A stretch of DNA of 64,000 nucleotides from a virus. The notes under the pieces are model-generated. The model saw only the letters and a program-made list of their open reading frames with translations, was not told where the DNA came from and did not search any database. The stretch is taken from IMG/VR virus record IMGVR_UViG_3300023276_001265; one strand, written 5' to 3'. Both the position numbers and the translations under genes were made by a program. Shown here piece after piece: positions 1,920-47,100 of this stretch; the first letter of the stretch is position 1; each line of letters begins with the position of its first letter.

Positions 1920-3611
1920 ATGGACATGCTAGTAGGAACCAACGACGACGGAAGTGACTTCACGGTCAAAGCCAGTGATCTGCTGACGCACGGCGTCATT
2001 CTAGGCCGCACCGGATCTGGTAAGACCGGAGCCACGGTCACCACTGTCGAGAACGCCGTCATGAGCGGTGCGTCGGCGATTATCCTCGACCCCAAGGGCG
2101 ACCTGACTAACCTCGCTCTGGTATTCCCCGACCTCGCCGCTGAGGATTTCGCTCCTTGGTCTGAGGAAGGCTCGGACTCTGAGAAGATCGCCGAGAAGGC
2201 TCAGAAAGAGCTTGGTCACCTTGCCCCTAACGTCCGTGTCTGGAAAGACGCGGCTGATGTCACGATCTACGCCCCTGGCAAGACCCACGGAGGCGGTAAG
2301 CCCATCAACGTCCTCGCCTCCTTCGGCGCTCCAACTGGAACATTTAACGATCAGTCCCTCCGAGACCGTGCCTCGGCTGTCGTGTCCTCGGTCCTGAGCG
2401 CAGTCGGACACGGCGCTGACCCTCTCACCGATCCGGCCAATGTCTTCATGACTGATGTCATGGTCAATTCTTGGAAGAACGGTAAAGGATTCCCAATGGA
2501 GGAATGGGCGACGACGCTCACTGACCCTCCTGCCGAGTTCCAAGTCATTGATGGACTTCCGATCAACGATTTCTTCCCCAAGAAGGATCGCCTAAAGATC
2601 GCACGTGCGGTCGTCGGCTTTCGTCGCCAGGCCACCAAGTGGCTGGACGGTGAGGCTCTGTCCATTGAGAGCTACATCGGTATCAACAAGCCAAAGGTCT
2701 CAGTCTTCACCATGCGCCACCTCAACGAGGGTGAGCGTAAGTTCTTCGCAGCAATGCTCCTGTCGGCAATCGTGGACTACATGTTCCGCGCTCCGGCCAG
2801 CAACAAGCTGAAGCTACTGGTCGTCCTTGACGAGGCCCGTGGCTACCTGCCTCCATACCCGCTCAACCCTCCGACCAAGAAGCCGATCTGCACCCTCCTG
2901 GCGCAGGCCCGTGCCCACGGCATCGGTATTCTGATCGGGACGCAGAACCCAAACGACCTGGACTACAAAGCCCTCACTAACGTCGGCACCTGGTTCCTGG
3001 GCAAGCTGCGTGAGCGTGACTGCGCCCGTGACCTCAAGCGTGAGCTCTCGGTCCGCAATGTTGATCGGGACATTCTGTCCACGGTTCCGCAGCAACACTT
3101 CCTGGTGCTCAAGAAAGACGGCACCCACAGTCTGGCCAAGATCCGCTGGGCCTACAGCTACCTCCGTGGACCGTTGAGCGGTCAGGAGCTTCTCCGCCTG
3201 GAGGACTCTGTCCAGACCTCCTTCAAGCCTGTCCAGACCTCCGTCAAGCCCGTCAAGCCCTCCTACAAGGCGTCGTCTGCAGCCGCTCAGGTGTTTGAGG
3301 GCAGCGGTGACGTTCGCATCAACTTCGTCCTGACCGATCGCAAGTCAGGAGGGTCTACGGTAGTCGTAGAGCATTCCATCAATGGCGGCGATAGCTGGAG
3401 GTCGTCTCGTATCAAGAACAAGTCCAAGAGTTACGGGTCAACCCCTTTCGGTCAGAGACATACGGTGGTGTGGAACACGATCAAGGACGTGGGCCGCAAG
3501 AACGTGACAGCGCTGGTGCGCCTGAAGATCAACGGTCAAATCTCTCAGCACTACTCGGTGTTCAAGGTGAACAACACGAGGATTAGCCGCTTCTCGTCGC
3601 TGTTCTCCTAA
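1920..3611 (+). CDS. HerA/FtsK-superfamily (DUF87-like) P-loop ATPase with beta-rich C-terminal domain
   Basis: THGVILGRTGSGKT (Walker A), ILDPKGD, LVVLDEA (Walker B), QARAHGIGILIGTQNP. Confidence 0.85.
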   Translation: MDMLVGTNDDGSDFTVKASDLLTHGVILGRTGSGKTGATVTTVENAVMSGASAIILDPKGDLTNLALVFPDLAAEDFAPWSEEGSDSEKIAEKAQKELGHLAPNVRVWKDAADVTIYAPGKTHGGGKPINVLASFGAPTGTFNDQSLRDRASAVVSSVLSAVGHGADPLTDPANVFMTDVMVNSWKNGKGFPMEEWATTLTDPPAEFQVIDGLPINDFFPKKDRLKIARAVVGFRRQATKWLDGEALSIESYIGINKPKVSVFTMRHLNEGERKFFAAMLLSAIVDYMFRAPASNKLKLLVVLDEARGYLPPYPLNPPTKKPICTLLAQARAHGIGILIGTQNPNDLDYKALTNVGTWFLGKLRERDCARDLKRELSVRNVDRDILSTVPQQHFLVLKKDGTHSLAKIRWAYSYLRGPLSGQELLRLEDSVQTSFKPVQTSVKPVKPSYKASSAAAQVFEGSGDVRINFVLTDRKSGGSTVVVEHSINGGDSWRSSRIKNKSKSYGSTPFGQRHTVVWNTIKDVGRKNVTALVRLKINGQISQHYSVFKVNNTRISRFSSLFS

Positions 3612-3656
3612 TGTTCAACATCTAAGGTAAAAGGTTCTAGGTGATAGGAGGATCAA

Positions 3657-6600
3657 ATGTCAGACGCACGACTAAGGGACGCTGAGAGACGCTGGAGCGA
3701 GACCGGGGCGGACGATGATCTGTCAGTCCTCGTAATCGCCAGGAAACGTGCAGGACTTGAGATCCCTTATGGGATGCGAGTCCGCATGACGAAGCTGTTC
3801 TCAACCTTAGGTAAAAACAAGCGTGGCCTGGAAGAGTTCCGCCACAAGACCTCGGGAATGATCTTCGTGATGATTCCTGCTGGCGAGTTCATGATGGGCC
3901 GAAACGATGAGGACACTCCCCAGCAGAGGAGAGAGTTCGCTGTTGGAGTGCACCAAGTGCTGGATGTCGCGCCCCAGCAGAGGAGAGAGTTCGCTGAACC
4001 GTTCCTGGTCGCCAAGTATCCATGGACAGGGCGTGAGTGGTATCGGACCACAGGGGAGTTCCCCTCTCATTTCCCCACACGGGCGATGATGGACGAGTGG
4101 ATGCCAGTCGCAATCCCAGAAGACGCCACCTACGGCCCTGAAATCCGCATGGAGGCTATCGACAGCGATGGAAAGAGATGGGGAGACCACCCCGTCGAGT
4201 CCGTCTCGTGGGACCGTTGTCGCCAAGTCGAGGATCACATCAATAGGGTTGACTTCGTCCGTCAGTTCAATGCCCGATTCCTCCTCAAGAATGACCTAAA
4301 GGAACACGCATGGGTCAATTGGGTCGATTACACCCACGGACTCGCTTCAATCAATCTATCTCCAGCGAAGCTCAGACCTGATGGAGAGGTGGTGCTTCCA
4401 CACTTCGCAGGACTGGTCTTCACTGATGAGGTCGAGAGCCTCTACCAGGGCTGGCTCTGGAACGAGGACAACGAGCGTGCTGGCTTCCAGCTGCCGACCG
4501 AGTCGATGTGGGAATATGCGGCCCGTGCAGGGACAACAACTCGCTACCCCAACGGGGACACGGACGAGGACCTAGCGAAGATCGCCTGGTTCGGCGGTGA
4601 CTGGGATGATGGTCACAAGGCTGTCGGCCTGAAAGATGACAACAACTGGGGCCTCCACGATAACTGCGGCAACGTGTTCGAGTGGACTCGCTGCATGTGG
4701 CGTCAAACGGTCGAGGAAAACCCAGTGAACGGCTTCCTCGCAGTAGGGGAAGAATGCTCGGACCCTACGGTTACGGAATACCTCTGCGATTCATCGATCC
4801 AGGAACGTGTATCCGTACAATTAGCCGCTCCGCCCTTACCTCCTTCGAACGAGGATGGCAGTCAATCCAGCAACAACCCACAGACCTCGGAGTCCGACCC
4901 TGCTGGAGAGCAAAGTAGCCCGGACCCTACCCCAGTTTCACCCTCAGAGGGGGTGACTGGATCGTCGGAGCAGGGGTCCTCTGCATCAAGAGGCACACCG
5001 ACTACGCCCCTCACTACTACTGGGGAACCCGATCAGCCTGGAGGGGAAGGTGAACCTGGTTTTTTCGGCCAGACCCCTGCGGAGAGATCAAGCTCTCCGA
5101 CGGAGGGCTCTGCAACATCAGTAGTGCCCCAGGGGGCGGTCGATACTTCGACCAGATCTACGGGCGCTACGCAAGGTTCAGAATCCTCAAGTCCGTCTGC
5201 TGGACTCACAGCCTCAGCTGGAGAGAGCGGACCGCAAGTTTCAGGGACCTCCTCTGGAGAACCAGTCATCAGTCCCACGTCAGCACCCGACCAGTCTGGC
5301 GAGGACGATAGCTCGGATTTTACCCAGACAGCATCTTCGTCGGAAGCGATGGGTGGGCAGACCCAGCCTGCTCCGTCGACTTCAGTAGGGGATGCTACGA
5401 CCGAGACCAATACGACCCCAGCGGCGGGGTTAGGCCAACTTGGAGAGGACGGTAGCCCGGATTTTTCACAAACTTCGTCTATTCAGACGACCCCGACATC
5501 GCCTACTTCCAGAGAAACCTCCACAGGTCCCTCTTCGGACCAGTCCCAGACAGGTGGGTCACACGCGGAGGAGACTTCCACGACGCAGGACCCAACCGCC
5601 GGGGCGTCGAGCCTAGTAGTCGATGCTACGCAGGTGGACACCGACTCTCCTGGCGAGGACGATAGCTCGGACCCTACGCATGGCTCGGATACGTCCCTGA
5701 GTCGAGATTCTACTCCGCAGGAGTCGGAACTTACTACCAGCCCCCACGGGACGAATACCGATGCGGATGCAACGCCTGTAACCCAGGAGGACACCGGGCC
5801 GCAGGCACCAGGATCTTCTGGAGAGGGCGTTAGCTCGGATTTTCCTCAAGGTGGACAGTCCACCGAGATCCAACCTTCCCCCCAAACGAGTTCGCCCTCA
5901 GAGGGCGGCAAGGGTCTTCTTTCCTCGATTCAGGGTTCATCTACGCCTCCTACGTCCCACTTGAGGTCAGCGCGACCTACGCAGAAAACGGCCGATACAT
6001 CAAAGGAAACATCTGGGACACCTTGGAAGGAGAAGAGAACATCTTCTCCACAGGAGAACGATCTTCCAGACAGCGATACATCATCCTCGGCTCACAAGGA
6101 CTCCGACCGGCCTGGAGGTGCCGGTGACGCTGTCCCTTTAGCCTTAAGGAGCGTGTCGACCAGCTCCTCGGAACACTCACCATCGACAACAGCGCCTTCG
6201 AGGACAACTTCAAGTATCAAGCCAAGTATGGAGACGCCTTCCGGCAGGTCTACGCAGCAGACGACATCAGGCTCACCCAACAGTTCTACACCGACAACTG
6301 GATGGCCGAGGGAACAGTCATCATCAAGGGAGGACATTGGAACTCGTCCGCAAGTCAACTCACCATCGCCTGGGACGACCCAACCGACCCAGACGACTCC
6401 TACGGGGAGTGGGGACTCAGACCAGCCTGGAGAATTCGGTAGTGCTGTCCCTTTAGCCTTGCGGAGCGAGTCATTCCGCTCCTCAGAGACGGCTTCCTCC
6501 GAGAACGACTCGCCGAGGTCAACGACTATCTCACCGAGGTCAGGCACAGAGCTTTCTCCTCCCATGACACATCAAGAGTCATCGTCGTCCGAAGCTCGGG

Positions 6601-8255
6601 GCAACACATGCCGATCGCCGCAGGACCTTGCCCCAGACATCGATCCGGAGGTGCCAGGGCTGAATGCACCTCACCCAGAGCAGCCTGGCGGAGCCGTTAG
6701 CTCGGATTTTCCTCAAGGGTCGCAGCCATGTCCCAGCGCATCTTTGATCTCACAAGACGACAAGACGATAGCTGGCTCGTCGTCAGTCCAGAGATCGCAA
6801 GAGAGCTTAGACACGTCTACGACCACAGAGCCGACAGAATGCTCAGAGGAGGCTTCTTCAACTCCGACACCAGAGACCAGTTCGAGGATGGATGGGACAT
6901 CTGGTCTCTCGATCCCGATCTTCCCGACCGTATCGCTGGGCTCAGGCTCACCTGGCGAGCGAGGTGATTCGGATTTTCCCCCGTCGCCTTCATTGGAAGA
7001 GGGGGTGGAAAGACTGAGGTCCTCGGGCTTAACCTCTTCGCCTCCATCATTGATGTCGCAAATTTCGGATTCCCCAGACTCGACAAGGTCCTCAGAAACC
7101 ACGCCTGGTTCGACCTCCCAGAATTCAGCAGGTGGCGACAACACTCCTGCACAGATGGAGAGGACGACGGATTCAGAGCCTCCTGGAGAGGGCGGTGATT
7201 CGGATTTTCCGTTGACGACCCCCTCGCTCTCCTACGAGGAGGCGCCTGGGGCGCAGGATCCATCACCCCAATCGATGAACACCACCCATGGGTCGATGAC
7301 TGGGCGCTCGACCGGGATCTCCCAGACGAGACCGCAGGAGGGCGACCAGCCTGGAGAGGGAGGTGATTCGGATTTTCCCCAAGGGCCTTCCTCCACTACT
7401 ACGTTCCCCAGGACTCAGACACCTGGGAGGCCTGGGAGTGGACCGGCGGATCAGAGCTCATGTCAATCAGCCAACGAAGCAGAGTCCACATCAAGGGAGG
7501 AAGCTACTACTCCAACGCCGACACCACACCAAGCCCAACCGTCTGTAGCCGATCCTACGAATACACAGTCGCCACTGGAGCGGGGAGTTGGATCGGACTC
7601 CGATCAGCCTGGAGAGGGAGGTGATTCGGATTTTCCGTTGGGGAGTTCACTCGCTTCGACATCCCTTCCTTCAGTAACTTCTGGGCCACCACCGTCGCAT
7701 CCCGACTCCCCACTGGACCAACCATCATCGTCAGAGCCCCAAGCTGGCAGTGCGACACAGGAGACTGCCTTATCAGAGATCCTCGCTGGGCTGAGGAGCG
7801 AGATGACAACATCTCCCCAAGAGCGGCCTGGAGGTGCCGCAGACCCTGATACCTTTCCAGGTGGACTCGGACCGCATATTGATAAGTGGGCTCCTCTCCT
7901 CTCCGGCATTGATGAGACCTGGACCCGGACAGTCGCAGCAGCCATGCTCGAAAACGAATCAAGACATCTACAGCGTCTCCAGTCTGAGGTCGATGGAGAG
8001 GGCGTCGGCCCCTTTCTCCAATACGCCCTCCCTCTCATCAGACGGGCCAGTCCTCTCAACTTTCCCTACGTCCAGCCCATGCTCGGACCCATCGGAGGAA
8101 TGGCCTTCTACAGACCGGATCTCGCCCGTAGAAGAGACCCCATTGAGCGAGGAGGAAGTTGGTACGAGGACACCGGCGTTCTCGGACTTGATGAGAGAGG
8201 GGCTTCTGGTGCCATCAGCTCCAGAGGGCATCGACCTGCATGGCGCTCCCGGTAG
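3657..8255 (+). CDS. FGE-sulfatase (SUMF1/C-type-lectin fold) domain protein; zero-frame read-through product of a cassette array
   Basis: FVMIPAGEFMMG, HPVESVSW, FQLPTESMWEYAARAG, NNWGLHDNCGNVFEW; the closing RGGSW...GHRPAWR motif appears only about 1100 aa later; the intervening region is S/T/P/G-rich; GGAGG RBS. Confidence 0.9.
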   Translation: MSDARLRDAERRWSETGADDDLSVLVIARKRAGLEIPYGMRVRMTKLFSTLGKNKRGLEEFRHKTSGMIFVMIPAGEFMMGRNDEDTPQQRREFAVGVHQVLDVAPQQRREFAEPFLVAKYPWTGREWYRTTGEFPSHFPTRAMMDEWMPVAIPEDATYGPEIRMEAIDSDGKRWGDHPVESVSWDRCRQVEDHINRVDFVRQFNARFLLKNDLKEHAWVNWVDYTHGLASINLSPAKLRPDGEVVLPHFAGLVFTDEVESLYQGWLWNEDNERAGFQLPTESMWEYAARAGTTTRYPNGDTDEDLAKIAWFGGDWDDGHKAVGLKDDNNWGLHDNCGNVFEWTRCMWRQTVEENPVNGFLAVGEECSDPTVTEYLCDSSIQERVSVQLAAPPLPPSNEDGSQSSNNPQTSESDPAGEQSSPDPTPVSPSEGVTGSSEQGSSASRGTPTTPLTTTGEPDQPGGEGEPGFFGQTPAERSSSPTEGSATSVVPQGAVDTSTRSTGATQGSESSSPSAGLTASAGESGPQVSGTSSGEPVISPTSAPDQSGEDDSSDFTQTASSSEAMGGQTQPAPSTSVGDATTETNTTPAAGLGQLGEDGSPDFSQTSSIQTTPTSPTSRETSTGPSSDQSQTGGSHAEETSTTQDPTAGASSLVVDATQVDTDSPGEDDSSDPTHGSDTSLSRDSTPQESELTTSPHGTNTDADATPVTQEDTGPQAPGSSGEGVSSDFPQGGQSTEIQPSPQTSSPSEGGKGLLSSIQGSSTPPTSHLRSARPTQKTADTSKETSGTPWKEKRTSSPQENDLPDSDTSSSAHKDSDRPGGAGDAVPLALRSVSTSSSEHSPSTTAPSRTTSSIKPSMETPSGRSTQQTTSGSPNSSTPTTGWPREQSSSREDIGTRPQVNSPSPGTTQPTQTTPTGSGDSDQPGEFGSAVPLALRSESFRSSETASSENDSPRSTTISPRSGTELSPPMTHQESSSSEARGNTCRSPQDLAPDIDPEVPGLNAPHPEQPGGAVSSDFPQGSQPCPSASLISQDDKTIAGSSSVQRSQESLDTSTTTEPTECSEEASSTPTPETSSRMDGTSGLSIPIFPTVSLGSGSPGERGDSDFPPSPSLEEGVERLRSSGLTSSPPSLMSQISDSPDSTRSSETTPGSTSQNSAGGDNTPAQMERTTDSEPPGEGGDSDFPLTTPSLSYEEAPGAQDPSPQSMNTTHGSMTGRSTGISQTRPQEGDQPGEGGDSDFPQGPSSTTTFPRTQTPGRPGSGPADQSSCQSANEAESTSREEATTPTPTPHQAQPSVADPTNTQSPLERGVGSDSDQPGEGGDSDFPLGSSLASTSLPSVTSGPPPSHPDSPLDQPSSSEPQAGSATQETALSEILAGLRSEMTTSPQERPGGAADPDTFPGGLGPHIDKWAPLLSGIDETWTRTVAAAMLENESRHLQRLQSEVDGEGVGPFLQYALPLIRRASPLNFPYVQPMLGPIGGMAFYRPDLARRRDPIERGGSWYEDTGVLGLDERGASGAISSRGHRPAWRSR
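3918..3996 (+). repeat. 25-bp exact direct repeat (PQQRREFA x2)
   Basis: CCCCAGCAGAGGAGAGAGTTCGCTG at 3918-3942 and 3972-3996. Confidence 0.9.
4760..7849 (+). other. array of 14 alternative FGE C-terminal cassettes in the -1 frame
   Basis: Heptamer-to-stop coordinates: 4760-4918, 4922-5053, 5060-5311, 5315-5455, 5459-5665, 5669-5833, 5837-6127, 6134-6442, 6449-6700, 6704-6967, 6971-7198, 7202-7366, 7370-7624, 7628-7849. All end R-x-x-W-R-x-(R/K) (e.g. GLRPAWRIR*, GVRPTWRGR*, GFRASWRGR*); many have an RGGxW-like motif (LRGGDW, IKGGHW, LRGGAW, IKGGSY, TRGGDF, LRGGFF). Confidence 0.9.
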
Positions 8256-8565
8256 CATCGTCGTCAATGTACACGACGAGGTGCTTGTTGGACTTCCTGC
8301 GGACACCATGATCGGAGTTAGCATCAGTGGTCACATTCATCACCTCACCAATCAGTTCCGGCTAACCTCATTTGACTTCGTAGCTAGTCCTCCAGTGGCT
8401 GGGGCTTATCCCCGACTCGTCCCTCCCAGAACATCGCTACACACTTCATTAGGTGGAACCTGGTTTGAGGTCTTCCACAGAAGGTCAATTCCACGTTCTA
8501 GCTCTGGGGCTTTTCCAGTCTGTCGCAACCAATGGTCGACCCGGCCTTGCTGGCGTTCACGTTAA
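8254..8565 (+). other. 16th FGE C-terminal cassette, in the +1 frame
   Basis: 3' part of ORF 7834-8565: SLGGTWF...WSTRPCWRSR*, the same terminal signature as the other cassettes. Confidence 0.75.
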
Positions 8566-8596
8566 ATCTGATATCACGATGCGCCACAAAAAAGAC

Positions 8597-8624
8597 TTGC
8601 AATCCCCTCATGTCCCCCTAGACT
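8597..8624 (+). promoter_or_regulatory. sigma70-like promoter of the replication operon
   Basis: TTGCAA-N16-TAGACT, with an upstream A-tract, before 8688. Confidence 0.45.
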
Positions 8625-8687
8625 CACTCACCAGGCGAGACCATTTTAATCGCCTCACCCCACTAAGCATCACCTCCGAGGTTCACC

Positions 8688-8981
8688 ATGACACGCCGTG
8701 AGCAGGGATACCTCCGTGTCCCGAGACAACTTGTGAGCGACAAAAGCATGAAGTCCTCGGACCTCCGTGTATTCGCTGTGCTCATGGACATGTGCACTAC
8801 AGCTGACGAGATAGAAGATGGACTAGATGCCATCACTGAACACACTGGACTGACCAAGCGGACGGTCTGCGAGTGTTTGTCTAGGCTTGAAGGGCGTGGG
8901 TTCATTACGCGAGAGAGTCGTCGCGGACCTTACACTGGGCTCATCACCATTAGCGATGCGGCGGCAGACCTCAGTGCATAA
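8688..8981 (+). CDS. winged helix-turn-helix protein
   Basis: AITEHTGLTKRTVCECLSRLEGRGFITR; GAGG RBS. Confidence 0.8.
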   Translation: MTRREQGYLRVPRQLVSDKSMKSSDLRVFAVLMDMCTTADEIEDGLDAITEHTGLTKRTVCECLSRLEGRGFITRESRRGPYTGLITISDAAADLSA

Positions 8982-8991
8982 GCGTAAAAGC

Positions 8992-9312
8992 ATGCCTCAG
9001 GTAGTAGACCAGGTCGTTAAGGACGCAGACCTCAACGCATCTACGAAGATCATCTACCTCTACATCGCAGCCGCGTATCGTCTCAACTACTACACAAATC
9101 CCCACAACTGCGGCTCCTACGAAATCCTCGCAGAGGCTACCAACTTCAGCGTGGCTACCGTAAGGCGTGCCCTAAAGCAGCTAGTTGAAGTGGGACTACT
9201 CTCTATCGACTCAAGCTCCGACAAATTCGAGACGTGGCTCCCAGTGAAGATCCTTCACCTTGACGGTGGGCTGAACCTGCTACGGCAAATCGCCAACGCA
9301 GGTGGTGCGTGA
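8992..9312 (+). CDS. winged helix-turn-helix protein
   Basis: SYEILAEATNFSVATVRRALKQLVEVGLL; start uncertain (frame open from 8887). Confidence 0.75.
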   Translation: MPQVVDQVVKDADLNASTKIIYLYIAAAYRLNYYTNPHNCGSYEILAEATNFSVATVRRALKQLVEVGLLSIDSSSDKFETWLPVKILHLDGGLNLLRQIANAGGA

Positions 9313-22962: not shown

Positions 22963-23705
22963 GGGGTTCTCCTGGTAACCGTGGTCGCTTTTGCCAACTC
23001 CTCGACCGCGAGCTCGAAGTAGTCAGGTTTGTTTTCAAAACTGATGTGTCTTCGCCCAGTCGAGTGGGCTGCCCTGGCAGTGGTGCCGCTCCCAGCGAAC
23101 GGATCAAGCACGAGGTCGCCCTCATTGGAGAATATCTTGATGATGTCCTTGAATATCTTGTGGGGCTTCTTGTTGGGGTGGGCATGGCTCATAACCGGGT
23201 GGTGGAATTCGCCACGCTCGTAGCTGACATCTCTACGCTTGTGGAAAGTCCAACCTCCCTTGTTCTTATTTATCGGCTTCACCGCCCACAAGCAGCACTC
23301 GTCGCCCTGCACCGGAACGCGGTGCATGTTTCGAGGAATCGGGTTGTTCTTACGCCACCTCATTTGGCGCTTTACTACAACACCGAGCGTTTGTAGGTGG
23401 GCCGCAATAATACCGAGCAGCTTCCAGTCGTTCCAGATGACCAGTGACCCACCCTTCTTGAGGGACCTCACCGCGTCCTCAAGCCATCCAGTCTGATCGA
23501 ACTCGTGGTCCCATTCGCCGAAGTCGATGCTCCTCCGACCCATCGTATGTAAGTTATTGGTCTGACTTACATTGTAAGGAGGGTCACATAAAACTAGATC
23601 AACGCTTCCTGGAGTGACCAACTTCAACAGTTCAAAGGCATCGCCCAGATAGATTGCTGACTTATTGAGGAGGTGGGTTTGTTTTGGTGTCCACACGCCG
23701 CTCAC
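22959..23705 (-). CDS. DNA adenine methyltransferase (beta class)
   Basis: DPPYN, HPNKKP, DPFAGSGTT. Confidence 0.92.
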   Translation of the reverse strand: MSGVWTPKQTHLLNKSAIYLGDAFELLKLVTPGSVDLVLCDPPYNVSQTNNLHTMGRRSIDFGEWDHEFDQTGWLEDAVRSLKKGGSLVIWNDWKLLGIIAAHLQTLGVVVKRQMRWRKNNPIPRNMHRVPVQGDECCLWAVKPINKNKGGWTFHKRRDVSYERGEFHHPVMSHAHPNKKPHKIFKDIIKIFSNEGDLVLDPFAGSGTTARAAHSTGRRHISFENKPDYFELAVEELAKATTVTRRTP

Positions 23706-24228
23706 GCTCTCGACTCCCGTCGCAGGTTGTGCATACCCATTGCACGTTTAGATAGTTTGTTTTGTCGTAGCCCATGAAGTGGTCTGCCCGAATGAGACTC
23801 CGCCCATCTGCTGCCCGACCGGGAGTGCTGCCGCAGTCCTCGCATATTGACGGCCTTACCAGATCGCCACGTGCGATAGCGTGTTGCACGGCTACGCGGG
23901 CCCTCGCTCTTAGCTGAGCGTGCTCTCTCTTCCGATAGACTTGTTGGTAGGCCTGCTGCTTTCTCCTCGCCTCTGGCGTGCGCCTGGTGGCGTTCCTCTT
24001 TTCTTTGATGTCTTGTCTTCTTTTCCTCGCTCTCTGACGTTCGGCGTAAGCGGTGTTCTCTACCCGTTGCTCCTTCTTTCGTTCCCGGTCTTGCTTTCTG
24101 CATTTCGCCCTGTTGGCTTCCCTGTGCTTCCGCATGTAGGCAGCATTGAGCGCTCGGTGGCAGTTGAGGCAACGTCCGTTTTTGTGGATTGATGGTATTT
24201 GGCAGTCTCTGCAATTTGGGGTAGGCAT
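23662..24228 (-). CDS. HNH-like homing endonuclease
   Basis: CxxC motifs; AIARGDLVRPSICEDCG...ADH..Y...LNVQWVCTTC. Confidence 0.75.
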   Translation of the reverse strand: MPTPNCRDCQIPSIHKNGRCLNCHRALNAAYMRKHREANRAKCRKQDRERKKEQRVENTAYAERQRARKRRQDIKEKRNATRRTPEARRKQQAYQQVYRKREHAQLRARARVAVQHAIARGDLVRPSICEDCGSTPGRAADGRSLIRADHFMGYDKTNYLNVQWVCTTCDGSRERERRVDTKTNPPPQ

Positions 24229-24235
24229 CTATCCT

Positions 24236-24370
24236 CCGACCCAAATTGTAACATGGAGGGTCGGTCAGGACCAGGTCTACGGACTCTGGCCGAACGCTCT
24301 TTAGGAGCTGGAAAGCATCGCCAAGGTAGATGGCGGACTGTTCTGGTAAGTAGAGAGAATCGCCTGACAT
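24236..24370 (-). pseudogene. 5' fragment of a DNA methyltransferase
   Basis: SAIYLGDAFQLLKSVRPESVDLVLTDPP matches the N-terminus of 22959-23705, then similarity ends. Confidence 0.75.
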
Positions 24371-31764: not shown

Positions 31765-31820
31765 ATGGTCGGGCAAAAACGATATCAGCGGCAGCGGTAG
31801 AATGGTTGAGAGGAGGCCGG

Positions 31821-34800
31821 GTGGCAAAGAAGAAGAAGAAGCTGAAGCCGAAGTACAAGGATGAGCTATGGGATCCAACTGACCTTTGCGAGATCAGCCC
31901 AGAGGAGCTTATTGAAGCCGTAAAGGCTGAGGGTGCATATAGTTACGATCTTGAGACAACTGGGCTGTCCCCCCGCAAAGACCGAATAGACGGCATTGCC
32001 TTCTACGTCCCCAACGAGAAGAATCCAGAGCGTAAGCCGATCCGGGCGTGGTTCCCGTTCGCTGATGGAACAATGGACCACACTGTCGAAGGTGGCAAGG
32101 TAGTCGCGCTCCGGGCGACACTAGACCAGTTCGACACAATGACTCGCCTACGTCCAATTTGGGGACTCAAAGACGTAATCGCGATCCGGCACAACGGGAT
32201 CTTCGATGACGCATTCATCTACCTATCAAGCGGTCTCGATGAAAACATCATTGTCGAGAACATCATCGCCGACAGTATGCTCGCCGACTATGTCGCCGAC
32301 GAACGACGTAAGCGTTATGGATTGAAATTGCGGGTCGAACAGGTGTTCGGGCACAAGATGACCTCATATAAGGAGGCTGCGGCCGGACAGGCCTCGTTCG
32401 CGTTCGCCATGAAGAAGCCCCTTGGCGTCTACGCTTGTGACGATACGGCGTGGACCTACCGTCTCTGGCGCTGGGCCATGGAGTCGATCCGGAAACAGGA
32501 TCCTCCGCGAGAGCACAAGGATCAGTGGTGTTCTCCGCTAGACGATACGCCTGGAATCTACAGCGACCTGGAGAAGGTCTTCTGGAAGATTGAAATGAGA
32601 ATCCAGCGGATCCTCATGGAGATGGAGATCACTGGCTGCTTCATCGATTGGGAGTGGTTGGTCGTCGTCCAAGAACGGCTGCAGAAGCAGAAGAAGACAA
32701 TTGAGGAGGAGATCAAGGAGGAATACGGTTGGATGCCGAAGATTCGGTCGCCAAAGCAGACCTCAGACTTCCTCTACAACCCGGTCGACAAAGGTGGCAT
32801 CGGGCTCCCGACCCAAGGTGTCGATTACAACGCGGTCACGGACCAATACGCGACCGGTGACAAGGCGATTAAGCACAGGGCGAGGGAATTCCCCGTCGTT
32901 GCAAAGATCCTCAAATACAGGTCCCTAGGCGTTGTCGAGAGCTCGTTCTGTCAGAAGCTAATCGGACTGGCCCAGGCAGAGACCAGGATCTACGCACGCT
33001 TCAGGCAGACCGGCACGGTCATCGGTCGTCTGAGTTGTCTTTCCGGAATGTCAATGCTCTCTATACGCCTGAATGGGGCGAATCTAAGGCGTTTAGTCAA
33101 ACTCTCAGAACTTGGTCAGTTTATCGGATCTGATGTTAGGATCATCACTCATAAGGGTCGTGAGCGCCGCGTGTTGAATCTGTTCAACAAGGGGCCAGGC
33201 CTGATGTTTGAGGTGGTGGCGGATGACGGCAGCAAAATCAGATGCACAAGAGACCACAAATTTTTCACCAACTCCGGGTGGCGTGCTCTCAAGGACATCA
33301 AACGAGGGGACAGACTGCTTCGAGCCGAGGTATGTGAGGCTCAGGAAGCCGATAAGAGGCAGGCGGTGGGTGCTGGATCGACCGTCGTTCTTCAAGGTGT
33401 TCGTGGACGACAAGAGGCCGGTTTACAAGAAGTCGAAAATCTATGGTCTGACGGATGGGATTGCACTCACGTGCAAGGCGATCTACGGCTGGGAGATCGA
33501 TGTGTTCCGAGGCCGTTCGAGGCGACGTCCGGACTTAGACGAGATACTTCCACTTGCACCGACATGGGTGCGACGAGACAAGTGCAAAGGCTTCATACTC
33601 TCCAGGGAGTCGTTCAAGGAGATCTTCGTAGACAGCGACCTGACGCAGGAGAAGGCGAAGAAGACCTACGGGATATCTCACCAGGCCATGATCCGGGCCG
33701 TGAAGACTTACAAGGAGTTCCACGACCCACTGGCGATGAAGCACGGACGACTCCTGAGCGCGGCCAAACGGAAGGAGGAGGCGTTCTTTCCAAAGTCGGC
33801 TTTGGTGGAGGAGATGTCAGAGGGGAGATCCCCTCAAGAGATCGCGGCCAAGTTCGGCGTGGGGGAGTCGATTATTTTGATGGACATGTACCACCACGGA
33901 GTATCCGCGAACCCTCACGGAACCATGTCGTGGGTGAGCCGATTGACGGACAGCGAGTACTTGGCACTGGTCGCACTGAACCCACGAATAGGAGAGCTTC
34001 CAACGGACCCGAAGATGGCTTTCACCGAGCTGGTGGAGGCCTATCAGAGGCTGATGCAACTAGCCCACTCGGTCAAGCAGAGCGGATCGATCATGGGGGC
34101 GTTGATCGAGAGGGGGACGATCGAGAAGGATCATCTAACGTTCGCTTCAAATCGGGCGGAGATGAGGCTGTCCCGTGCGCTGACGGCGGTTGGAATCCAG
34201 CATCGGCGACTATTCCATTTCTACAAGAACTGGCAGGCCGACTTCGCCTGGATAGATCAGAAACTACTGGTCGAGGTAGATGGCGCGTGGCACCAGAAGT
34301 GTGCTGCTACCAAGGATCGGGATCAGAAGAAGACAAAGAAGGCGAAGGAGCTTGGTTACCGAGTAGTGAGGTTCACCACCAAGCAGGTCGACAAGAACCT
34401 TCCTACGGTGATTCGGGAGATCGCGTTCGAACTTGGACACGAGTTACCAGCATCACTCCAGTCAGCGTCGAAGATGTCTGGGACCTCACCGTAGAGGGGG
34501 ATCACAGTTATCTAGCTCACGGGTTTGTCAACAAAAACAGTGCGGACCCCGTCAACCTGATGAACCAGCCACGAGAAAAGGACCTGATCCGCAAGGCGTT
34601 CTGCGCTCACCTTGAAGATGACTACGACGATGATCGCAACGAGCTAACGCTGATCGATGCTGACTACGGGCAAATGGAACTGCGCATGGCAGCTCACCTC
34701 GCCCGTGAGAAGAACATGATCGAGGTCTTCTCGGCGGTTGATGGGTGTGAGGCTGGTCCCGACGGTGGTCCGTGCGAGCGATACACGTTCCACGAGTGCT

Positions 34801-36743
34801 TCGCCTGTCACACGTGCCAGCCTCCAATTGAGCTCCCTGACGGCACCATGTCCTGCATTAAGTGCGGGGCTACAGGAGGAGACATTGAACATCAGAAGCG
34901 GTGTCGTCACGTAGATCCTCACCAGCGAACGTCAGAGGACGTAGGCGTCCCTCGAAACCCTCTCGCTAAGTGTTTAGACGGGTCAACGCTGCTTCTGGGC
35001 ATGCAGCCCGGTAATGGCAAGTGTTGGATTCAACCAACGACGATTGAGGACTTGGTGGGCGATATCGAGCCCAACGAACATCGACACGTGCCTGTGACCA
35101 CCGTGACGACATCTGAGGGGCTGGCCACGGCTCACACTGCGCTCAAGCGTCACAACAAGCAGACGAAGATCATCATTACTAGACGCGCTATTGTGATTGC
35201 TACCGTCGATCATAGGTTCCAGGTGCTCGGAGAGCATGGAGCGTTAGACCCTAACACGCCGAGTTATGTGCACGTTCCTGGGCGCAGCCTTGTAGAGGCC
35301 CAAAACCTCGAAAAGGGTATGAAGCTCCCCTTCATCGATATGGGGCATGAACAATCGATGGACCCCATGTGGCACCAGACAGGTCGTCATGGTGCGCTGG
35401 AGATCAATCCGTTCACCAAGGAGGTCCAGGAGGGAGGACCGGCCACCATCGTCCTTGATGAGAAGTGGGCCTACTTTGCAGGAATCTTCGCCGGGGACGG
35501 CTGCGCGTCCGGAAACTCGTGTTCCATCTCTCACGGACATACGCCGGAATACAAGGAGTGGCGGGACACAGTTCGAGAGGCTTGTGATGCCGTAGGGCTT
35601 CCCACCTCAATGCGAGGGGACAAGCGTCAGACAGCGATCGGCTCACGCGTCGTTCGTCGCTACCTCTCTGGTCTGAGGATCTGTGAGGAACTCGGCAAGG
35701 GTGACCAGGGCGCGAAGATCATGCGTGTCCCGCCGTGGGTCCTCAGTGGCGGACCGAAGATGATGTGGTCCTACATCGCTGGCATCTTCGATACCGATGG
35801 AACGGTCGGTAAAAAGAAGGCTGGGACGGCCAGCTTCACTACGAAGTCCCCCGAATTCGCCGGTCAAATGGCCTTCATGCTTCGCTGGCTTGGGATGCCT
35901 GTCCTCTGCCAGCCAGGGTTCAACAAGACCTACGAGCGGTGGTACTACACGGTTCATGTTTTGGGAGAGGGTATTGAGCGGTTCGCTCGACACTGCCCAA
36001 TGCGGCTCAAGGAGAAGGTTGACCGGCTCCACGAGAGGGCCGCAACTATCAAGCGTAAGTGTGCACCTACTAACGATGAGGTGATTGCCGTCATTGATGG
36101 CGGCGAACGGACGGTCTACGACTTCCAGATCGACACGGAGGACCACCTCTACAATCAGGGCGGCTTGGTCGGTCACAATAATGCTAATTTCGGACTTTTG
36201 TACAGAATGGGTGCGCCAAAGTTCTGCGTGTATGCAGGGTTGTTTGATGAGGACGGCAAGCCCCGTGTCGGCTACGGACAAGAGTTGATCGAGAAGTGGC
36301 ACGCGGCTTACCCTGGCATCGCTGCTTGGCACGAGCGGGTTCTTCATCAGCTGTGCGTCGACAACTACATCGCCTACACCATTACGAGACGCAGACGTCG
36401 CCTCGACATTGAGTGGAAGAAGAACGATTACCGGGCAGGAACCCAGGCCATTCAGTTCAAGGTTTCAGGCAGCTGCCAGGACCTCATCAAGCTGGCCATG
36501 ATCAAGCTCTTCGAGGTGCGGAATCAAAAGGTCGCGAACACGCCTCCAGCTGAGTCGCGGCTCTGGAAGAAGTTCCGCTTCATGATCCAGGTCCACGACG
36601 AGTTGATCTTCGAAGGTCCGAAGGCGATGAAAGAGGAGCTCTGCCTCCTGGTCAAGGAGTGCATGGAGGGCGCAGCCAAGGGCATGCGTATTCCCTTCGT
36701 CGCTGATGCGCGGGCCGGGAGGACCTGGGATGAGCTACACTAG
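31821..36743 (+). CDS. polA: family A DNA polymerase with 3'-5' exonuclease and two inteins
   Basis: DLETTG, HNGIFD, YACDD; GTVIGRLS|S, motif A DADYGQMELR, motif B AK|NANFGLLY, motif C QVHDE; AGGAGG RBS before GTG at 31821. Confidence 0.95.
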   Translation: MAKKKKKLKPKYKDELWDPTDLCEISPEELIEAVKAEGAYSYDLETTGLSPRKDRIDGIAFYVPNEKNPERKPIRAWFPFADGTMDHTVEGGKVVALRATLDQFDTMTRLRPIWGLKDVIAIRHNGIFDDAFIYLSSGLDENIIVENIIADSMLADYVADERRKRYGLKLRVEQVFGHKMTSYKEAAAGQASFAFAMKKPLGVYACDDTAWTYRLWRWAMESIRKQDPPREHKDQWCSPLDDTPGIYSDLEKVFWKIEMRIQRILMEMEITGCFIDWEWLVVVQERLQKQKKTIEEEIKEEYGWMPKIRSPKQTSDFLYNPVDKGGIGLPTQGVDYNAVTDQYATGDKAIKHRAREFPVVAKILKYRSLGVVESSFCQKLIGLAQAETRIYARFRQTGTVIGRLSCLSGMSMLSIRLNGANLRRLVKLSELGQFIGSDVRIITHKGRERRVLNLFNKGPGLMFEVVADDGSKIRCTRDHKFFTNSGWRALKDIKRGDRLLRAEVCEAQEADKRQAVGAGSTVVLQGVRGRQEAGLQEVENLWSDGWDCTHVQGDLRLGDRCVPRPFEATSGLRRDTSTCTDMGATRQVQRLHTLQGVVQGDLRRQRPDAGEGEEDLRDISPGHDPGREDLQGVPRPTGDEARTTPERGQTEGGGVLSKVGFGGGDVRGEIPSRDRGQVRRGGVDYFDGHVPPRSIREPSRNHVVGEPIDGQRVLGTGRTEPTNRRASNGPEDGFHRAGGGLSEADATSPLGQAERIDHGGVDREGDDREGSSNVRFKSGGDEAVPCADGGWNPASATIPFLQELAGRLRLDRSETTGRGRWRVAPEVCCYQGSGSEEDKEGEGAWLPSSEVHHQAGRQEPSYGDSGDRVRTWTRVTSITPVSVEDVWDLTVEGDHSYLAHGFVNKNSADPVNLMNQPREKDLIRKAFCAHLEDDYDDDRNELTLIDADYGQMELRMAAHLAREKNMIEVFSAVDGCEAGPDGGPCERYTFHECFACHTCQPPIELPDGTMSCIKCGATGGDIEHQKRCRHVDPHQRTSEDVGVPRNPLAKCLDGSTLLLGMQPGNGKCWIQPTTIEDLVGDIEPNEHRHVPVTTVTTSEGLATAHTALKRHNKQTKIIITRRAIVIATVDHRFQVLGEHGALDPNTPSYVHVPGRSLVEAQNLEKGMKLPFIDMGHEQSMDPMWHQTGRHGALEINPFTKEVQEGGPATIVLDEKWAYFAGIFAGDGCASGNSCSISHGHTPEYKEWRDTVREACDAVGLPTSMRGDKRQTAIGSRVVRRYLSGLRICEELGKGDQGAKIMRVPPWVLSGGPKMMWSYIAGIFDTDGTVGKKKAGTASFTTKSPEFAGQMAFMLRWLGMPVLCQPGFNKTYERWYYTVHVLGEGIERFARHCPMRLKEKVDRLHERAATIKRKCAPTNDEVIAVIDGGERTVYDFQIDTEDHLYNQGGLVGHNNANFGLLYRMGAPKFCVYAGLFDEDGKPRVGYGQELIEKWHAAYPGIAAWHERVLHQLCVDNYIAYTITRRRRRLDIEWKKNDYRAGTQAIQFKVSGSCQDLIKLAMIKLFEVRNQKVANTPPAESRLWKKFRFMIQVHDELIFEGPKAMKEELCLLVKECMEGAAKGMRIPFVADARAGRTWDELH
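33036..34538 (+). mobile_element. intein 1 in polymerase (501 aa)
   Basis: Begins CLSG after GRLS; block B CTRDHKF; ends VWDLTVEGDHSYLAHGFVNKN|S (Lys at the penultimate position). Confidence 0.9.
33334..34494 (+). CDS. DUF559/Vsr-like endonuclease nested in the +1 frame of intein 1
   Basis: SNRAEMRL...ADFAWIDQKLLVEVDGAWH...DQKK..KAKELGYRVVRF, HTH-like segments upstream; frame open from 33208, start uncertain. Confidence 0.8.
   Translation: MRLRKPIRGRRWVLDRPSFFKVFVDDKRPVYKKSKIYGLTDGIALTCKAIYGWEIDVFRGRSRRRPDLDEILPLAPTWVRRDKCKGFILSRESFKEIFVDSDLTQEKAKKTYGISHQAMIRAVKTYKEFHDPLAMKHGRLLSAAKRKEEAFFPKSALVEEMSEGRSPQEIAAKFGVGESIILMDMYHHGVSANPHGTMSWVSRLTDSEYLALVALNPRIGELPTDPKMAFTELVEAYQRLMQLAHSVKQSGSIMGALIERGTIEKDHLTFASNRAEMRLSRALTAVGIQHRRLFHFYKNWQADFAWIDQKLLVEVDGAWHQKCAATKDRDQKKTKKAKELGYRVVRFTTKQVDKNLPTVIREIAFELGHELPASLQSASKMSGTSP
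34971..36179 (+). mobile_element. intein 2 in polymerase with LAGLIDADG endonuclease (403 aa)
   Basis: CLDG..., ATVDHRF, FAGIFAGDG and IAGIFDTDG, VYDFQI...GLVGHN. Confidence 0.9.
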
Positions 36744-44005: not shown

Positions 44006-46285
44006 ATGGCACTTCGCGACGATGCGCTAAACTACCTGCGCCAGGTATTCGGCCGTGAACGCGCCGAGCGTGATCGGGCTGAATCTCCCTCGGCCGAGGC
44101 CGAGAAGCACATCCCGTCATCCATCTTCTCGGTATGGGGCCGAGAAGACGTCGGCGGACTACTCAGCGTCTCGCAGAACCTGATGGACAGGTATGCAGAT
44201 TATGAGCAGATGGATGATTATCCGGACATCAACTGTCTCACTGCAGATACTACGATTTACGTGGTTGAAGACTCCATTATCAAGCCCACTAGGATCCACG
44301 ACCTAGCTGCTCACGGCGGTGGCCCCAAGATCCTGGCCTACGACACAGAGAAGGACAAGCTCGTCGTAGTGGCGTCTGAGAATCCTCGCATTTCTGGCGA
44401 TAAGCAGGAGGTGGTTGAGGTCGGGTTTAGCAATGGTGAGAAAATCAAGTGCACCCCTGGGCACAAGTTCCTCACGGTCGAGCACGATTACATCAATGCC
44501 TCTGATCTAGTCGAGGGAACGGTTGTGGTCTCTTGTTGGTCTGGGTTTGACCCAACAGGAATGACCGCCTTTCTGCACTCAACATCAGGCCGATTGAAGG
44601 TGACCCAGGCCGCGATTCCGGCTGGGGTCGAAGACGTCTACGACGTCACAACTAAGACCCACAACTTCATCGCTAATGGGATTGTTGTCCATAACAGCGC
44701 CCACCACTACTTCACAAACGATGCGACCCAGCCGGATATTGACACCGGAAAAACCGTTTGGGTCCATTCTAGCGACGAAGCTATCAAGAGCATGTCGGAC
44801 GTGCTGCTCAACAAGCGGCTACGAATTGAAGACGATATCTGGTCCATGGTCTACACGACCGTGAAGATGGGCAATAACTACGAGGAGGTGCTGATCACTG
44901 ATAACGGCGTTGTCGGCCTCAACTCTCTTCCCTGCCCCACCATGCGCCGTGTCGAGCAGTCCAATGGCTCGATCATTGGTTACGTCCAGGACATCACTGG
45001 GAAGTTCACGCAGGACGCCTCGGACCTTCGCGGGATGCTGGCCGGTCAGGCTAAGGTCCCGGACCACGTCGCCCTGTTCGAGGAGTGGCAAGTCCTACAT
45101 ACGCGCCTTCGTGGCACGGCCCGCAGAACTCCATACGGGTTCGGTGTGGCTGATGGAGCTCGCTGGATCTGGAAGAGACTGGTTCTTCTCGAAGACTCGA
45201 TGCTCATCTACAAGCTGACCCGAGCTCCAGCCCGGTTCGCCTTCTACATCGACGTCACCGATATTCCATCTGACAAGGTGGAGTCCTTCCTACGCAAAGC
45301 CAAGCAAGACCTGCGGAAGCAGAAACTTGTTAACCCGAGGACCCAGCGCCTCGACATGCGTATGAATCCGATGGACAACCTTCAGGACTTCTTCATCGCG
45401 GTCCGCGAAAATCGCGAGCTAGCCCGTGTAGAGGTTCTCCAAGGCCCTGACTATCAGGCGACCGAGGATGTGGAGTACTTCCAGCGGAAGCTACACGGCG
45501 TCCTGAAGATCCCCAGGAACTATCTAGGGCAAGACGACGGCATCCCAGCCCGATCGATCCTCTCTTACGAGGATGTGCGGTCCGCACGCGTCACGATGGG
45601 AATCCAGCGCGAGGTCAGGAACAGCATTCGTCGTCTGATTCAGATCGATCTTGCGGCCCGAGGGATCAACCCCTTCAGGCAAGACCTTCAGGTGATGATG
45701 ACGGTCCCGTCCGGGATCTATGAGCTGGCGCACAACGAGATCAAGAACGCGAGAGCTGACTTCGCAACGCGAGTCCAGCCGTTTGTCTCAATGCGCTATA
45801 TCCAGGAGAAGATTCTCAAACTGACCGGCGATCAGATAGAGCGGATCGAGAAGGAGCGGGAAGAGGATCAAAAGAAGGAAGCTGCTCAGCAACAGGCTAT
45901 GGGCGGAGGTGATGATGGCGGTGGTGGCGGCGCTCCTGCTGCTGATGGTTCTCCGCCAGATGACGCTCCAATGCACCCAGGAAACGCTGAGATCGGCCCA
46001 CCACCGGGCTCTGGGGGTCGACCAGACAGTAAGTCGGAGTGGAAGTCTTACGATAGGGCGCGGCGCATTGAGGAAAAACGTGATCGCATGTCCCGGCAGC
46101 GTGATCAAGAGATTCAAGACACAATGCACAAGGTCATTGTCGGTAATAAGCAGATGGCCGCACAGCTCGCCCATCAACAGCAATTCTTCCGCGAGTTCAA
46201 GCACGCCGCATTCTCCCGGAACGGGAACGGCGGTCTGATCTCAGCCCCTCAGGGCGGCGGTCATCGACGACGTCGCATTAAGTGA
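44006..46285 (+). CDS. portal protein (T4 gp20-like) with mini-intein
   Basis: YADYEQMDDYPDI, LLEDSMLIYKLTRAPARFAFYIDV, DFFI, EDVEYFQRKLHGVLKIP. Confidence 0.92.
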   Translation: MALRDDALNYLRQVFGRERAERDRAESPSAEAEKHIPSSIFSVWGREDVGGLLSVSQNLMDRYADYEQMDDYPDINCLTADTTIYVVEDSIIKPTRIHDLAAHGGGPKILAYDTEKDKLVVVASENPRISGDKQEVVEVGFSNGEKIKCTPGHKFLTVEHDYINASDLVEGTVVVSCWSGFDPTGMTAFLHSTSGRLKVTQAAIPAGVEDVYDVTTKTHNFIANGIVVHNSAHHYFTNDATQPDIDTGKTVWVHSSDEAIKSMSDVLLNKRLRIEDDIWSMVYTTVKMGNNYEEVLITDNGVVGLNSLPCPTMRRVEQSNGSIIGYVQDITGKFTQDASDLRGMLAGQAKVPDHVALFEEWQVLHTRLRGTARRTPYGFGVADGARWIWKRLVLLEDSMLIYKLTRAPARFAFYIDVTDIPSDKVESFLRKAKQDLRKQKLVNPRTQRLDMRMNPMDNLQDFFIAVRENRELARVEVLQGPDYQATEDVEYFQRKLHGVLKIPRNYLGQDDGIPARSILSYEDVRSARVTMGIQREVRNSIRRLIQIDLAARGINPFRQDLQVMMTVPSGIYELAHNEIKNARADFATRVQPFVSMRYIQEKILKLTGDQIERIEKEREEDQKKEAAQQQAMGGGDDGGGGGAPAADGSPPDDAPMHPGNAEIGPPPGSGGRPDSKSEWKSYDRARRIEEKRDRMSRQRDQEIQDTMHKVIVGNKQMAAQLAHQQQFFREFKHAAFSRNGNGGLISAPQGGGHRRRRIK
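44234..44695 (+). mobile_element. mini-intein in portal (154 aa)
   Basis: CLTADT..., CTPGHKF, VYDVTTKTHNFIANGIVVHN|S. Confidence 0.92.
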
Positions 46286-46974: not shown

Positions 46975-47100
46975 GGAAAAATAGCTTTTAGTCAACTGCG
47001 GCCAAAACCGCTTGCCCGATGACGAGCTTCAAGGCCGGTTAACAGCAGCCCACGGCCTGGTGACCGTAAATTTGTTCCTGACATTGAGCGCGGCATTCTT
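46971..47100 (-). ncRNA. putative omegaRNA with guide
   Basis: IS605-like right end (GCAAGC...CAGTTGAC, ending at 46991) downstream of tnpB; the guide would be about 46990-46971. Confidence 0.4.

Follow-up and report, generated by a model that had tools for sequence, protein, structure and literature searches.

In the genome of a large T4-like myophage assembled from seawater metagenomes (IMG/VR record IMGVR_UViG_3300023276_001265), a single gene appears to specify up to 16 proteins with a shared N-terminal body and different C-terminal ends. We analysed a 64,000-nt window of the 157,525-bp contig, which is assigned to the T4-like myophages by its portal protein (PF07230), tail sheath and intein-bearing DNA polymerase A. 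The gene (3657–8255, plus strand) holds an open reading frame (ORF) of 1532 amino acids (aa) that encodes an FGE/C-type-lectin body, a zero-frame linker and, at its end, the fifteenth of 16 terminal modules, here called cassettes; fourteen others lie in the −1 frame of the linker. We give a probability of about 0.8 to the reading that serial, mutually exclusive −1 ribosomal frameshifts produce these ends from one gene. The original prediction of such an array gains support from in-phase shift motifs at 98 of 101 junctions, Shine–Dalgarno (SD) tracts, a 5′-to-3′ rise in signal strength, selection on two frames and 16 further loci, all of it evidence read from sequence.

In the proposed mechanism, ribosomes would load at a single start on a single mRNA, make the FGE/C-type-lectin body and continue through a disordered, acidic zero-frame linker. 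Each of the 14 junctions has an SD-like tract followed by a shift-prone motif, and there some ribosomes would slip by −1, read the cassette and stop at its end. Ribosomes that never slip would finish in cassette 15, and cassette 16 would probably be reached by a +1 slip at UUU-C. Each cassette would supply the missing last strand or strands and complete the fold across an increasingly long linker. The predicted product set comprises up to 16 isoforms of 420–1635 aa.

Layout of the array gene

The Pfam FGE-sulfatase profile (PF03781) matches residues 70–358 of the product (E=5e-19, 69.5 bits, cut-off 23.3) and is covered from position 5 to 203 of 255, its last ~50 positions being absent from the body, as expected from the early proposal that the domain lacks its terminal strands. 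TvpA is the best match of the family in the PDB by sequence, and a Foldseek fold search also ranked it first, weakly (E=0.013). The other two frames of the body contain 18 and 14 stops and give no signal. Inside the body lies a 34-nt direct repeat (3909–3942 and 3963–3996), which gives an in-frame 18-residue insertion that relatives do not have.

Between 4760 and 7849 the −1 frame translates as exactly 14 stop-ended peptides, whose stops span 4916–7847; a W-R-x-R-type end closes every one of them. This count agrees with the original prediction; the lengths given there (43–102 aa) are corrected to 42–101 aa from the slip site, or 44–104 aa from stop to stop. All 14 entry sites stand in one phase without a conserved start codon, as had also been noticed. 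Past 7850 the zero frame enters the fifteenth module, and the +1 frame, open over 7807–8565, ends in a sixteenth; of the roughly 16 C-termini first proposed, 16 cassettes are thus counted, the last of them in the +1 and not the −1 frame. We rejected an assembly error as the source of the phase change near 7850, since contigs from three other studies reproduce the whole stretch, this change included, and have no gaps there. The features of the gene are as follows.

3657–4759, plus strand: shared N-terminal body, 368 aa, FGE/C-type-lectin fold without C-terminal strands (PF03781 match)
4760–7849, plus strand: zero-frame linker, dual-coded with cassettes 1–14; acidic, S/T/P/G-rich, predicted disordered (composition, model of a homolog)
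4760–4918, plus strand: cassette 1, −1 frame, entry GGACCCT, predicted product 420 aa
4922–5053, plus strand: cassette 2, entry GGACCCT, predicted product 465 aa; ordinary FGE C-terminus match
5057–5311, plus strand: cassette 3, entry in a T6 run, predicted product 551 aa; weak NPCxEIxL motif like that of ribonucleotide reductase (RNR)
5315–5455, plus strand: cassette 4, entry GGATTTT, predicted product 599 aa
5459–5665, plus strand: cassette 5, entry GGATTTT, predicted product 669 aa; weak, short portal-like segment
5669–5833, plus strand: cassette 6, entry GGACCCT, predicted product 725 aa; orthologs 65–94% identical
5837–6127, plus strand: cassette 7, entry GGATTTT, predicted product 823 aa; C-terminal fragment of a T4-type major capsid protein
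6134–6442, plus strand: cassette 8, entry CCCTTTA, predicted product 928 aa; best FGE C-terminus match
6449–6700, plus strand: cassette 9, entry CCCTTTA, predicted product 1014 aa; ortholog 81% identical
6704–6967, plus strand: cassette 10, entry GGATTTT, predicted product 1103 aa; FGE C-terminus match; family with a mid-capsid segment
6971–7198, plus strand: cassette 11, entry GGATTTT, predicted product 1180 aa
7202–7366, plus strand: cassette 12, entry GGATTTT, predicted product 1236 aa; FGE C-terminus match
7370–7624, plus strand: cassette 13, entry GGATTTT, near-perfect SD tract (dG −16.9), predicted product 1322 aa
7628–7849, plus strand: cassette 14, entry GGATTTT, near-perfect SD tract (dG −16.9), predicted product 1397 aa
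7851–8255, plus strand: cassette 15, zero frame, default end (1532 aa); capsid N-terminal fragment and FGE end
7854–7857, plus strand: TTT-C, candidate +1 shift site toward the frame of cassette 16
7807–8565, plus strand: +1 frame, a second linker over cassette 15 and then cassette 16 (~8257–8565); predicted product 1635 aa

Graded frameshift-like signals at the junctions

We sought shift motifs within 21 nt of the cassette stop at 101 junctions, taking cassette interiors as background. C_CCY or U_UUY occurs in zero-frame phase at 98 of them, against an interior expectation of 6%, and in the two other phases at 36 and 15; the three junctions without an in-phase motif are two phase-change junctions and one decayed spacer. 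Most entry heptamers (n=100) fall into three types, GGACCCT (33), CCCTTTN (32) and GGATTTT (26), which differ in the dipeptides they encode, yet all permit cognate re-pairing. E. coli has four shift-prone tetramers, U_UU.Y and C_CC.Y among them, and SD tracts 6–17 nt upstream are proven frameshift stimulators there (PMC4066793); G_GAU_UUU has been described as a −1 site of an umbravirus (PMC5009743). A tract at the 6–17-nt distance precedes 93 of the 98 sites, compared with 26% in the background, by a rule that comes from E. coli; the motif classes likewise agree with the hierarchy established in E. coli. Pairing of the upstream sequence with the anti-SD amounts to −10.6 kcal/mol versus −6.6±0.3 kcal/mol after synonymous resampling, about 4 stronger than the peptides require. 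The tract often contains a −1-frame stop, and RNA structure upstream of the junctions stands at z −0.07.

The signals are graded along the array. C_CCY sites come early and U_UUN sites late, with 5′-to-3′ rho values of −0.51 for SD strength and +0.58 for motif class (within-array permutation, 0 of 2000), and of 9 longer arrays, 8 have SD tracts that grow stronger in the 3′ direction. Such a rise is what a serial chain of exits needs so that late modules still get made. The same isoforms could come from a mixed mRNA pool if RNA polymerase slipped and inserted one base per junction: the entry motifs all contain short C or T runs, and slippage would equally require an open zero frame and conserved cassettes. 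The runs are, however, of 3–6 nt, whereas bacterial slippage requires ~9 A or T, and the described T5C5 case, which comes with an upstream hairpin, deletes and does not insert (PMC5009743). Slippage of the polymerase also requires neither codon phase nor an SD tract, both of which are strongly conserved, and we consider it highly unlikely.

Selection on two reading frames

Cassette codons almost wholly avoid xTA and xTG, and the codons favoured are those that give an acidic, S/T/P-rich zero frame. With the cassette peptides held fixed and synonymous codons resampled at the usage of the other window genes (2000 draws), 19.2±3.7 zero-frame stops are expected, with a minimum of 8; none is found over 1029 codons, in line with the open run of about 1030 codons ahead of a fifteenth cassette that had been predicted. 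For comparison, the longest open +1-frame run among 11 other window genes is 163 codons. The zero-frame product is enriched in D, E, P, Q and S (z 7–9.5) and depleted in L, V and R (z −5 to −7). This composition, together with an alignment-based fold of a homolog (L001) in which the predicted local distance difference test (pLDDT) is mostly 80–90 in the body and ~30 in the linker, fits the early expectation of a disordered S/T/P linker.

Orthologous cassettes are 60–94% identical for most pairs. Over 1132 aligned codons, their ratio of non-synonymous to synonymous substitution (dN/dS) comes to 0.39 for the −1 frame, compared with 0.98 for the zero frame. Both frames are under selection: the cassettes for their sequence, the zero frame for being open and for its composition, as expected of a disordered spacer. 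These values bear on the very improbable case that only the 1532-aa protein matters and that the cassettes are decaying remnants of duplicated variable regions of a diversity-generating retroelement (DGR), in which NNC codons passively hold off stops. DGR copies rich in such codons indeed lack stops in the overlapping frame, and relatives contain some degenerate cassettes; mere decay nevertheless sits badly with a dN/dS of 0.39, with the identity among orthologs, with capsid motifs kept across ten phages and with graded junction signals.

Relatives and turnover of the array

Sequence searches recovered 16 other distinct loci with this layout, all on phage-like contigs, with 2–16 cassettes each and N-terminal bodies 48–69% identical. 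In all of them the −1 cassettes stand in phase beneath a zero frame that stays open; the one exception among homologs is L006, a close copy with an indel and a stop in the N-terminal body. An exhaustive profile search gave 13 clusters at 50% identity covering the body. The family was not found in cellular genomes or cultured phages, and DNA pattern scans of viral contigs revealed no further array. P0012/L022 was rejected as an array, being an ordinary multi-FGE gene, and was used as a negative control.

Strain variants keep the phase through three single-base deletions that sum to one codon and through a compensated −1/+1 pair. Relatives, and members of a single population, differ in how many cassettes they carry and in what order, which shows that recombination reshapes the array over time. 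Decayed cassettes or spacers with a broken −1 frame and an open zero frame occur in L014 (5817–5892), L015 (5034–5256), L007 (149–329) and L018 (1540–2300), and cassette 1 is missing or broken in several relatives whose zero frame remains open; single cassettes can therefore be lost with the chain unbroken. Seawater assemblies break or branch at junctions (5018, 6098–6287, 6460–6538 and 6685), with alternative alleles and loose ends, which suggests strain-level cassette variation. A low-depth joint 5678–6685 in run X3, with 30 letters on its short side, was set aside as probably the junction of another strain.

This turnover, together with a ~30-nt direct junction repeat of which one copy stands at the first site, could also be read as the mark of a silent cassette reservoir, from which DNA recombination at the repeats fuses one cassette at a time to the body. 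With 14 of 14 sites in one phase, though, an in-register deletion leaves the cassette in the −1 frame, and a reservoir gives no reason for an open, hydrophilic zero frame of 1030 codons. Every complete member seen has a linker and none is a compact single-cassette fusion, so in-frame DNA fusion of single cassettes, named at the outset as the competing outcome, did not appear among them. Nor was a tyrosine recombinase (PF00589) found in three related records (89, 74 and 23% complete), in which serine recombinases were not searched. We give the reservoir very little credence.

Proposed completion of the lectin fold

The terminal cassette of one family member aligns to TvpA residues 248–293, the C-terminal 46 residues of a protein whose C-terminal end a DGR diversifies (PMC5758913). 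The equation of cassettes with the variable region stands for the ends; the cassette bodies are more than variable regions, many of them containing pieces of other phage proteins. When compared with a profile built from ordinary FGE C-termini, 6 of the 16 window cassettes (43 of 120 overall) score above the 95th percentile of shuffles, and an RGGxW-like motif occurs in about half. That each cassette ends like an FGE domain thus holds for the last strand alone, which all retain. With only 6 of 16 matching, not every isoform need rebuild the same binding site.

Structure prediction of the body with a cassette, an experiment proposed together with the original claim, docked cassette 8 with a score of 0.84 against 0.44 for the best control, passing a mark that 58 of 80 solved complexes reached and 2 of 110 mismatched pairs. 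Runs shared at least 83% of their contacts, with partner pLDDT of at least 53, and in the model only the last 43 residues touch the body, leaving the front of the cassette free. This pass may instead reflect likeness to solved FGE/TvpA structures. A single-sequence fold of L023 had a pLDDT of 35. That a free cassette docks in the model, and that strong SD-like tracts stand directly before each cassette, would also suit separate translation by re-initiation and completion of the body in trans, which is barely credible given that the junctions offer no ATG, GTG or TTG in the cassette frame at a suitable spacing from the SD and that slippery motifs and an open zero frame would go unexplained.

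Head-protein fragments and possible functions

When we compared 119 cassettes with the ORFs of a related 203-kb phage and of the window, 34 matched related-phage ORFs at E<0.01, versus 1 with a reversed database, nearly all of them to the major capsid protein or the S77 prohead protease. Cassette 15 corresponds to capsid residues ~28–138 of the relative (E=2e-20) and cassette 7, whose capsid motif is shared by the ten phages, to residues ~405–449 (E=4e-9; family profile E=4e-19), and orthologs of cassette 10 match residues ~342–374 (E 0.001–0.005). The capsid fragments are 30–65% identical to the relative's own capsid protein. Cassette 16 contains a C-terminal segment of the prohead protease (S77; family profile E=3e-8 to the relative's protease). 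Two further likenesses are weak: the top two matches of the cassette 5 family profile are the portals of this and a related phage (E=0.008–0.009), with an ortholog at E=0.032 against Portal_T4, and the top match of the cassette 3 family profile is the RNR of a related phage (E=0.086), an enzyme whose active-site loop the NPCxEIxL motif of cassette 3 resembles. Searched one by one with Pfam and PHROGs, the cassettes had no match above the cut-off.

Resemblances seen by eye were not confirmed for cassette 8 (portal), for L017 6393 and L018 4654 (baseplate wedge) or for L014 7095, L016 3611 and L017 5721 (an aromatic motif like tail-fibre repeat segments). Shortened major capsid paralogs of ~330–340 aa are encoded at L026 (in G001) and at L025 and L027 (in G002, where two adjoin).

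Capsid proteins and prohead proteases trigger bacterial defence (PMC12409349), and the array gene lies among replication genes, outside the head module. Because of these two observations we favour, tentatively and at less than even odds, a role for the isoforms as cytoplasmic, early-made scaffolds that show capsid, protease and portal pieces as decoys for host immune sensors. The whole combination, in which 14–15 graded frameshift sites act as translational alternative last exons and a 16-member lectin-fold library is displayed as decoys, is more doubtful. Given frameshifting, the chance falls a little short of even that the fragments instead poison or hijack the assembly of co-infecting phages, tag the phage's own head or are mere raw material for loops. 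They derive from self-associating assembly proteins, at the identities given above, and related phages also encode shortened capsid paralogs; a location among replication genes, however, fits early cytoplasmic action better than a virion role, and the raw-material variant has to contend with family motifs that are retained.

A candidate +1 step to cassette 16

In L020, L021 and L023 the protease cassette terminates the zero frame. In the window and in five relatives the register is displaced by one base, so that translation by default ends in the capsid cassette, and the former linker and protease cassette survive in the +1 frame; seven related loci have the capsid cassette as their zero-frame default end. 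The +1-frame tail is stop-free in 6 of 6 loci (individual chance 0.005–0.14) and mostly hydrophilic. TTT-C occurs in all six loci whose +1 tail is intact, even though the residue that follows differs among them, and L016, which has no +1 tail, has stops there and no TTT-C. Codon use in the +1 frame is ordinary over cassette 16 and shows the linker-type bias over cassette 15. A +1 slip at UUU-C would be the simplest route to cassette 16, and we put it at even odds. The GTG at 7834 is an unlikely start codon for the +1 frame, being part of the SD tract and without an SD of its own.

Probable origin from a DGR target

A second clade (L004, L005, L012 and P0108–P0111), well supported and with its root not established, has short arrays and many canonical variable-region-like ends. 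Variable codons of L005, L012, L018, L041 and L042 differ at positions 1 and 2 with the third C fixed (NNC), the pattern that DGRs produce by adenine mutagenesis of AAC codons; it is not recognisable in the window cassettes. The array probably arose from out-of-frame tandem copies of a DGR variable region that were later filled with pieces of phage genes. Such copies would form the layout readily because NNC codons leave the overlapping frame stop-free and S/T/P/A-rich. No reverse transcriptase was recognised among the window ORFs or found in the three related records (89, 74 and 23% complete), and no DGR template/variable repeat pair was found, the longest repeat in 3400–9000 being 75 nt at 77%, at the junctions; we do not class the system as a DGR. 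The first account of the array had included neither this DGR-type origin nor the head-protein fragments, nor the +1 step for cassette 16.

Weighing the frameshift reading

Several points weigh against this account. RNA structure downstream of the junctions, which bacterial frameshift signals do not strictly require, is modest (mean z −0.6 to −0.9, with 24–32% of sites below −1.5), the first site lacks a motif in five relatives, and the junction counts overstate independence because junctions descend from one another. In the +1 frameshift of RF2 the SD stands 3 nt from the slip site, far from the 18–21 nt seen upstream of the +1 site here. Ten of the 16 window cassettes fail to score as FGE C-termini, and the alignment-based fold of L001 left the terminal cassette at low confidence. 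The decoy function draws on gene context and analogy. In E. coli the tetramers depend on strong stimulation and work ~10-fold less well than the best heptamers (PMC4066793). Use of GGA as the XXX triplet is on record from a plant virus and not from bacteria, and G_GAC_CCU is a candidate site.

Genomic context and other genes

The neighbourhood of the array gene, with a HerA-like ATPase upstream and helix-turn-helix (HTH) and replication genes downstream, is mostly conserved among related loci. Promoter and terminator scans reached chance level only. The upstream neighbour is the following.

1920–3611, plus strand: HerA/DUF87-like ATPase gene, conserved upstream neighbour; also upstream in L014, L015, L017, L019, L020, L021 and L023

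Elsewhere in the window, the DNA polymerase A gene (31806–36743) apparently carries two inteins, one with an alternative-frame ORF (33208–34494) and one of LAGLIDADG type, and the portal gene (44006–46285) holds a mini-intein. Related phages have inteins in the prohead protease (L030, G001), DnaB (L001) and RNR (L033). A TnpB/Cas12f-like gene (47029–48144, minus strand) is inserted among structural genes, and an HNH-like ORF (23662–24370, minus strand) overlaps and interrupts a DNA methyltransferase gene.

Comparison with known systems

As far as a literature search shows, no serial, mutually exclusive frameshift array has been described, in agreement with what was first claimed. If the reading holds, a virus diversifies a recognition protein all at once from one genome, without reverse transcriptase, recombinase or splicing. 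The family would also offer a natural series of more than 100 graded bacterial frameshift signals of little-studied types, a dual-coding region of 1000 codons and a plausible path by which a DGR target could turn into a translational switch; should the fragments be decoys, the array would be a record of the phage motifs that host immune sensors recognise. Because annotation calls only the low-complexity zero-frame protein and misses the cassettes, similar arrays may hide elsewhere.

Programmed −1 frameshifting is known from dnaX, IS3/IS911, lambda G/GT, T3/T7 gene 10 and the capsid and tail extensions of Listeria phages A118 and PSA (PMC5009743, PMC4066793), and single −1 shifts with two products are frequent among phages (PMC5009743). 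These bacterial and phage cases resemble the array in joining an SD-like tract to a Z_ZZN or X_XXY_YYZ motif and in giving a shared N-terminus with an alternative C-terminus, but they have one site and two products per gene, whereas the array has 14 serial, mutually exclusive exits, a selected 1000-residue zero-frame spacer and graded signal strength. Genes with several recoding sites in one coding sequence are also known, among them those of Euplotes, Perkinsus cox1 (10 shifts), a mitochondrial gene (12) and two-shift retroviruses (PMC5009743); there the steps are cumulative and lead to one product, or to two to three nested ones, whereas each shift in the array leads to a different terminal module.

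DGR targets of the FGE/C-type-lectin class, such as Treponema TvpA (PDB 2y3c) and Bordetella phage Mtd, share the fold of the array protein (PMC5758913), and second-clade cassettes vary at NNC codons as DGR variable regions do. Unlike those targets, the window cassettes differ in length and carry foreign fragments, and many ends lie in one gene to be chosen at translation, so that one genome would make all variants. Shufflons and invertible cassettes (R64 pilV, Mu G, P1 C, p15B Min) depend on a recombinase acting at inverted sites, and each genome expresses one end. They share with the array a constant N-terminus and a series of alternative C-termini separated by short repeats, but the repeats of the array are direct, in register and out of frame; no inverted site set of the shufflon type was found at the junctions, and the adjoining genes are those for the ATPase and HTH proteins. 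In eukaryotes, alternative terminal exons and arrays of mutually exclusive exons such as those of Dscam likewise derive many recognition-protein isoforms from one gene. The array would work as they do, without splicing signals and with the choice apparently made by the ribosome.

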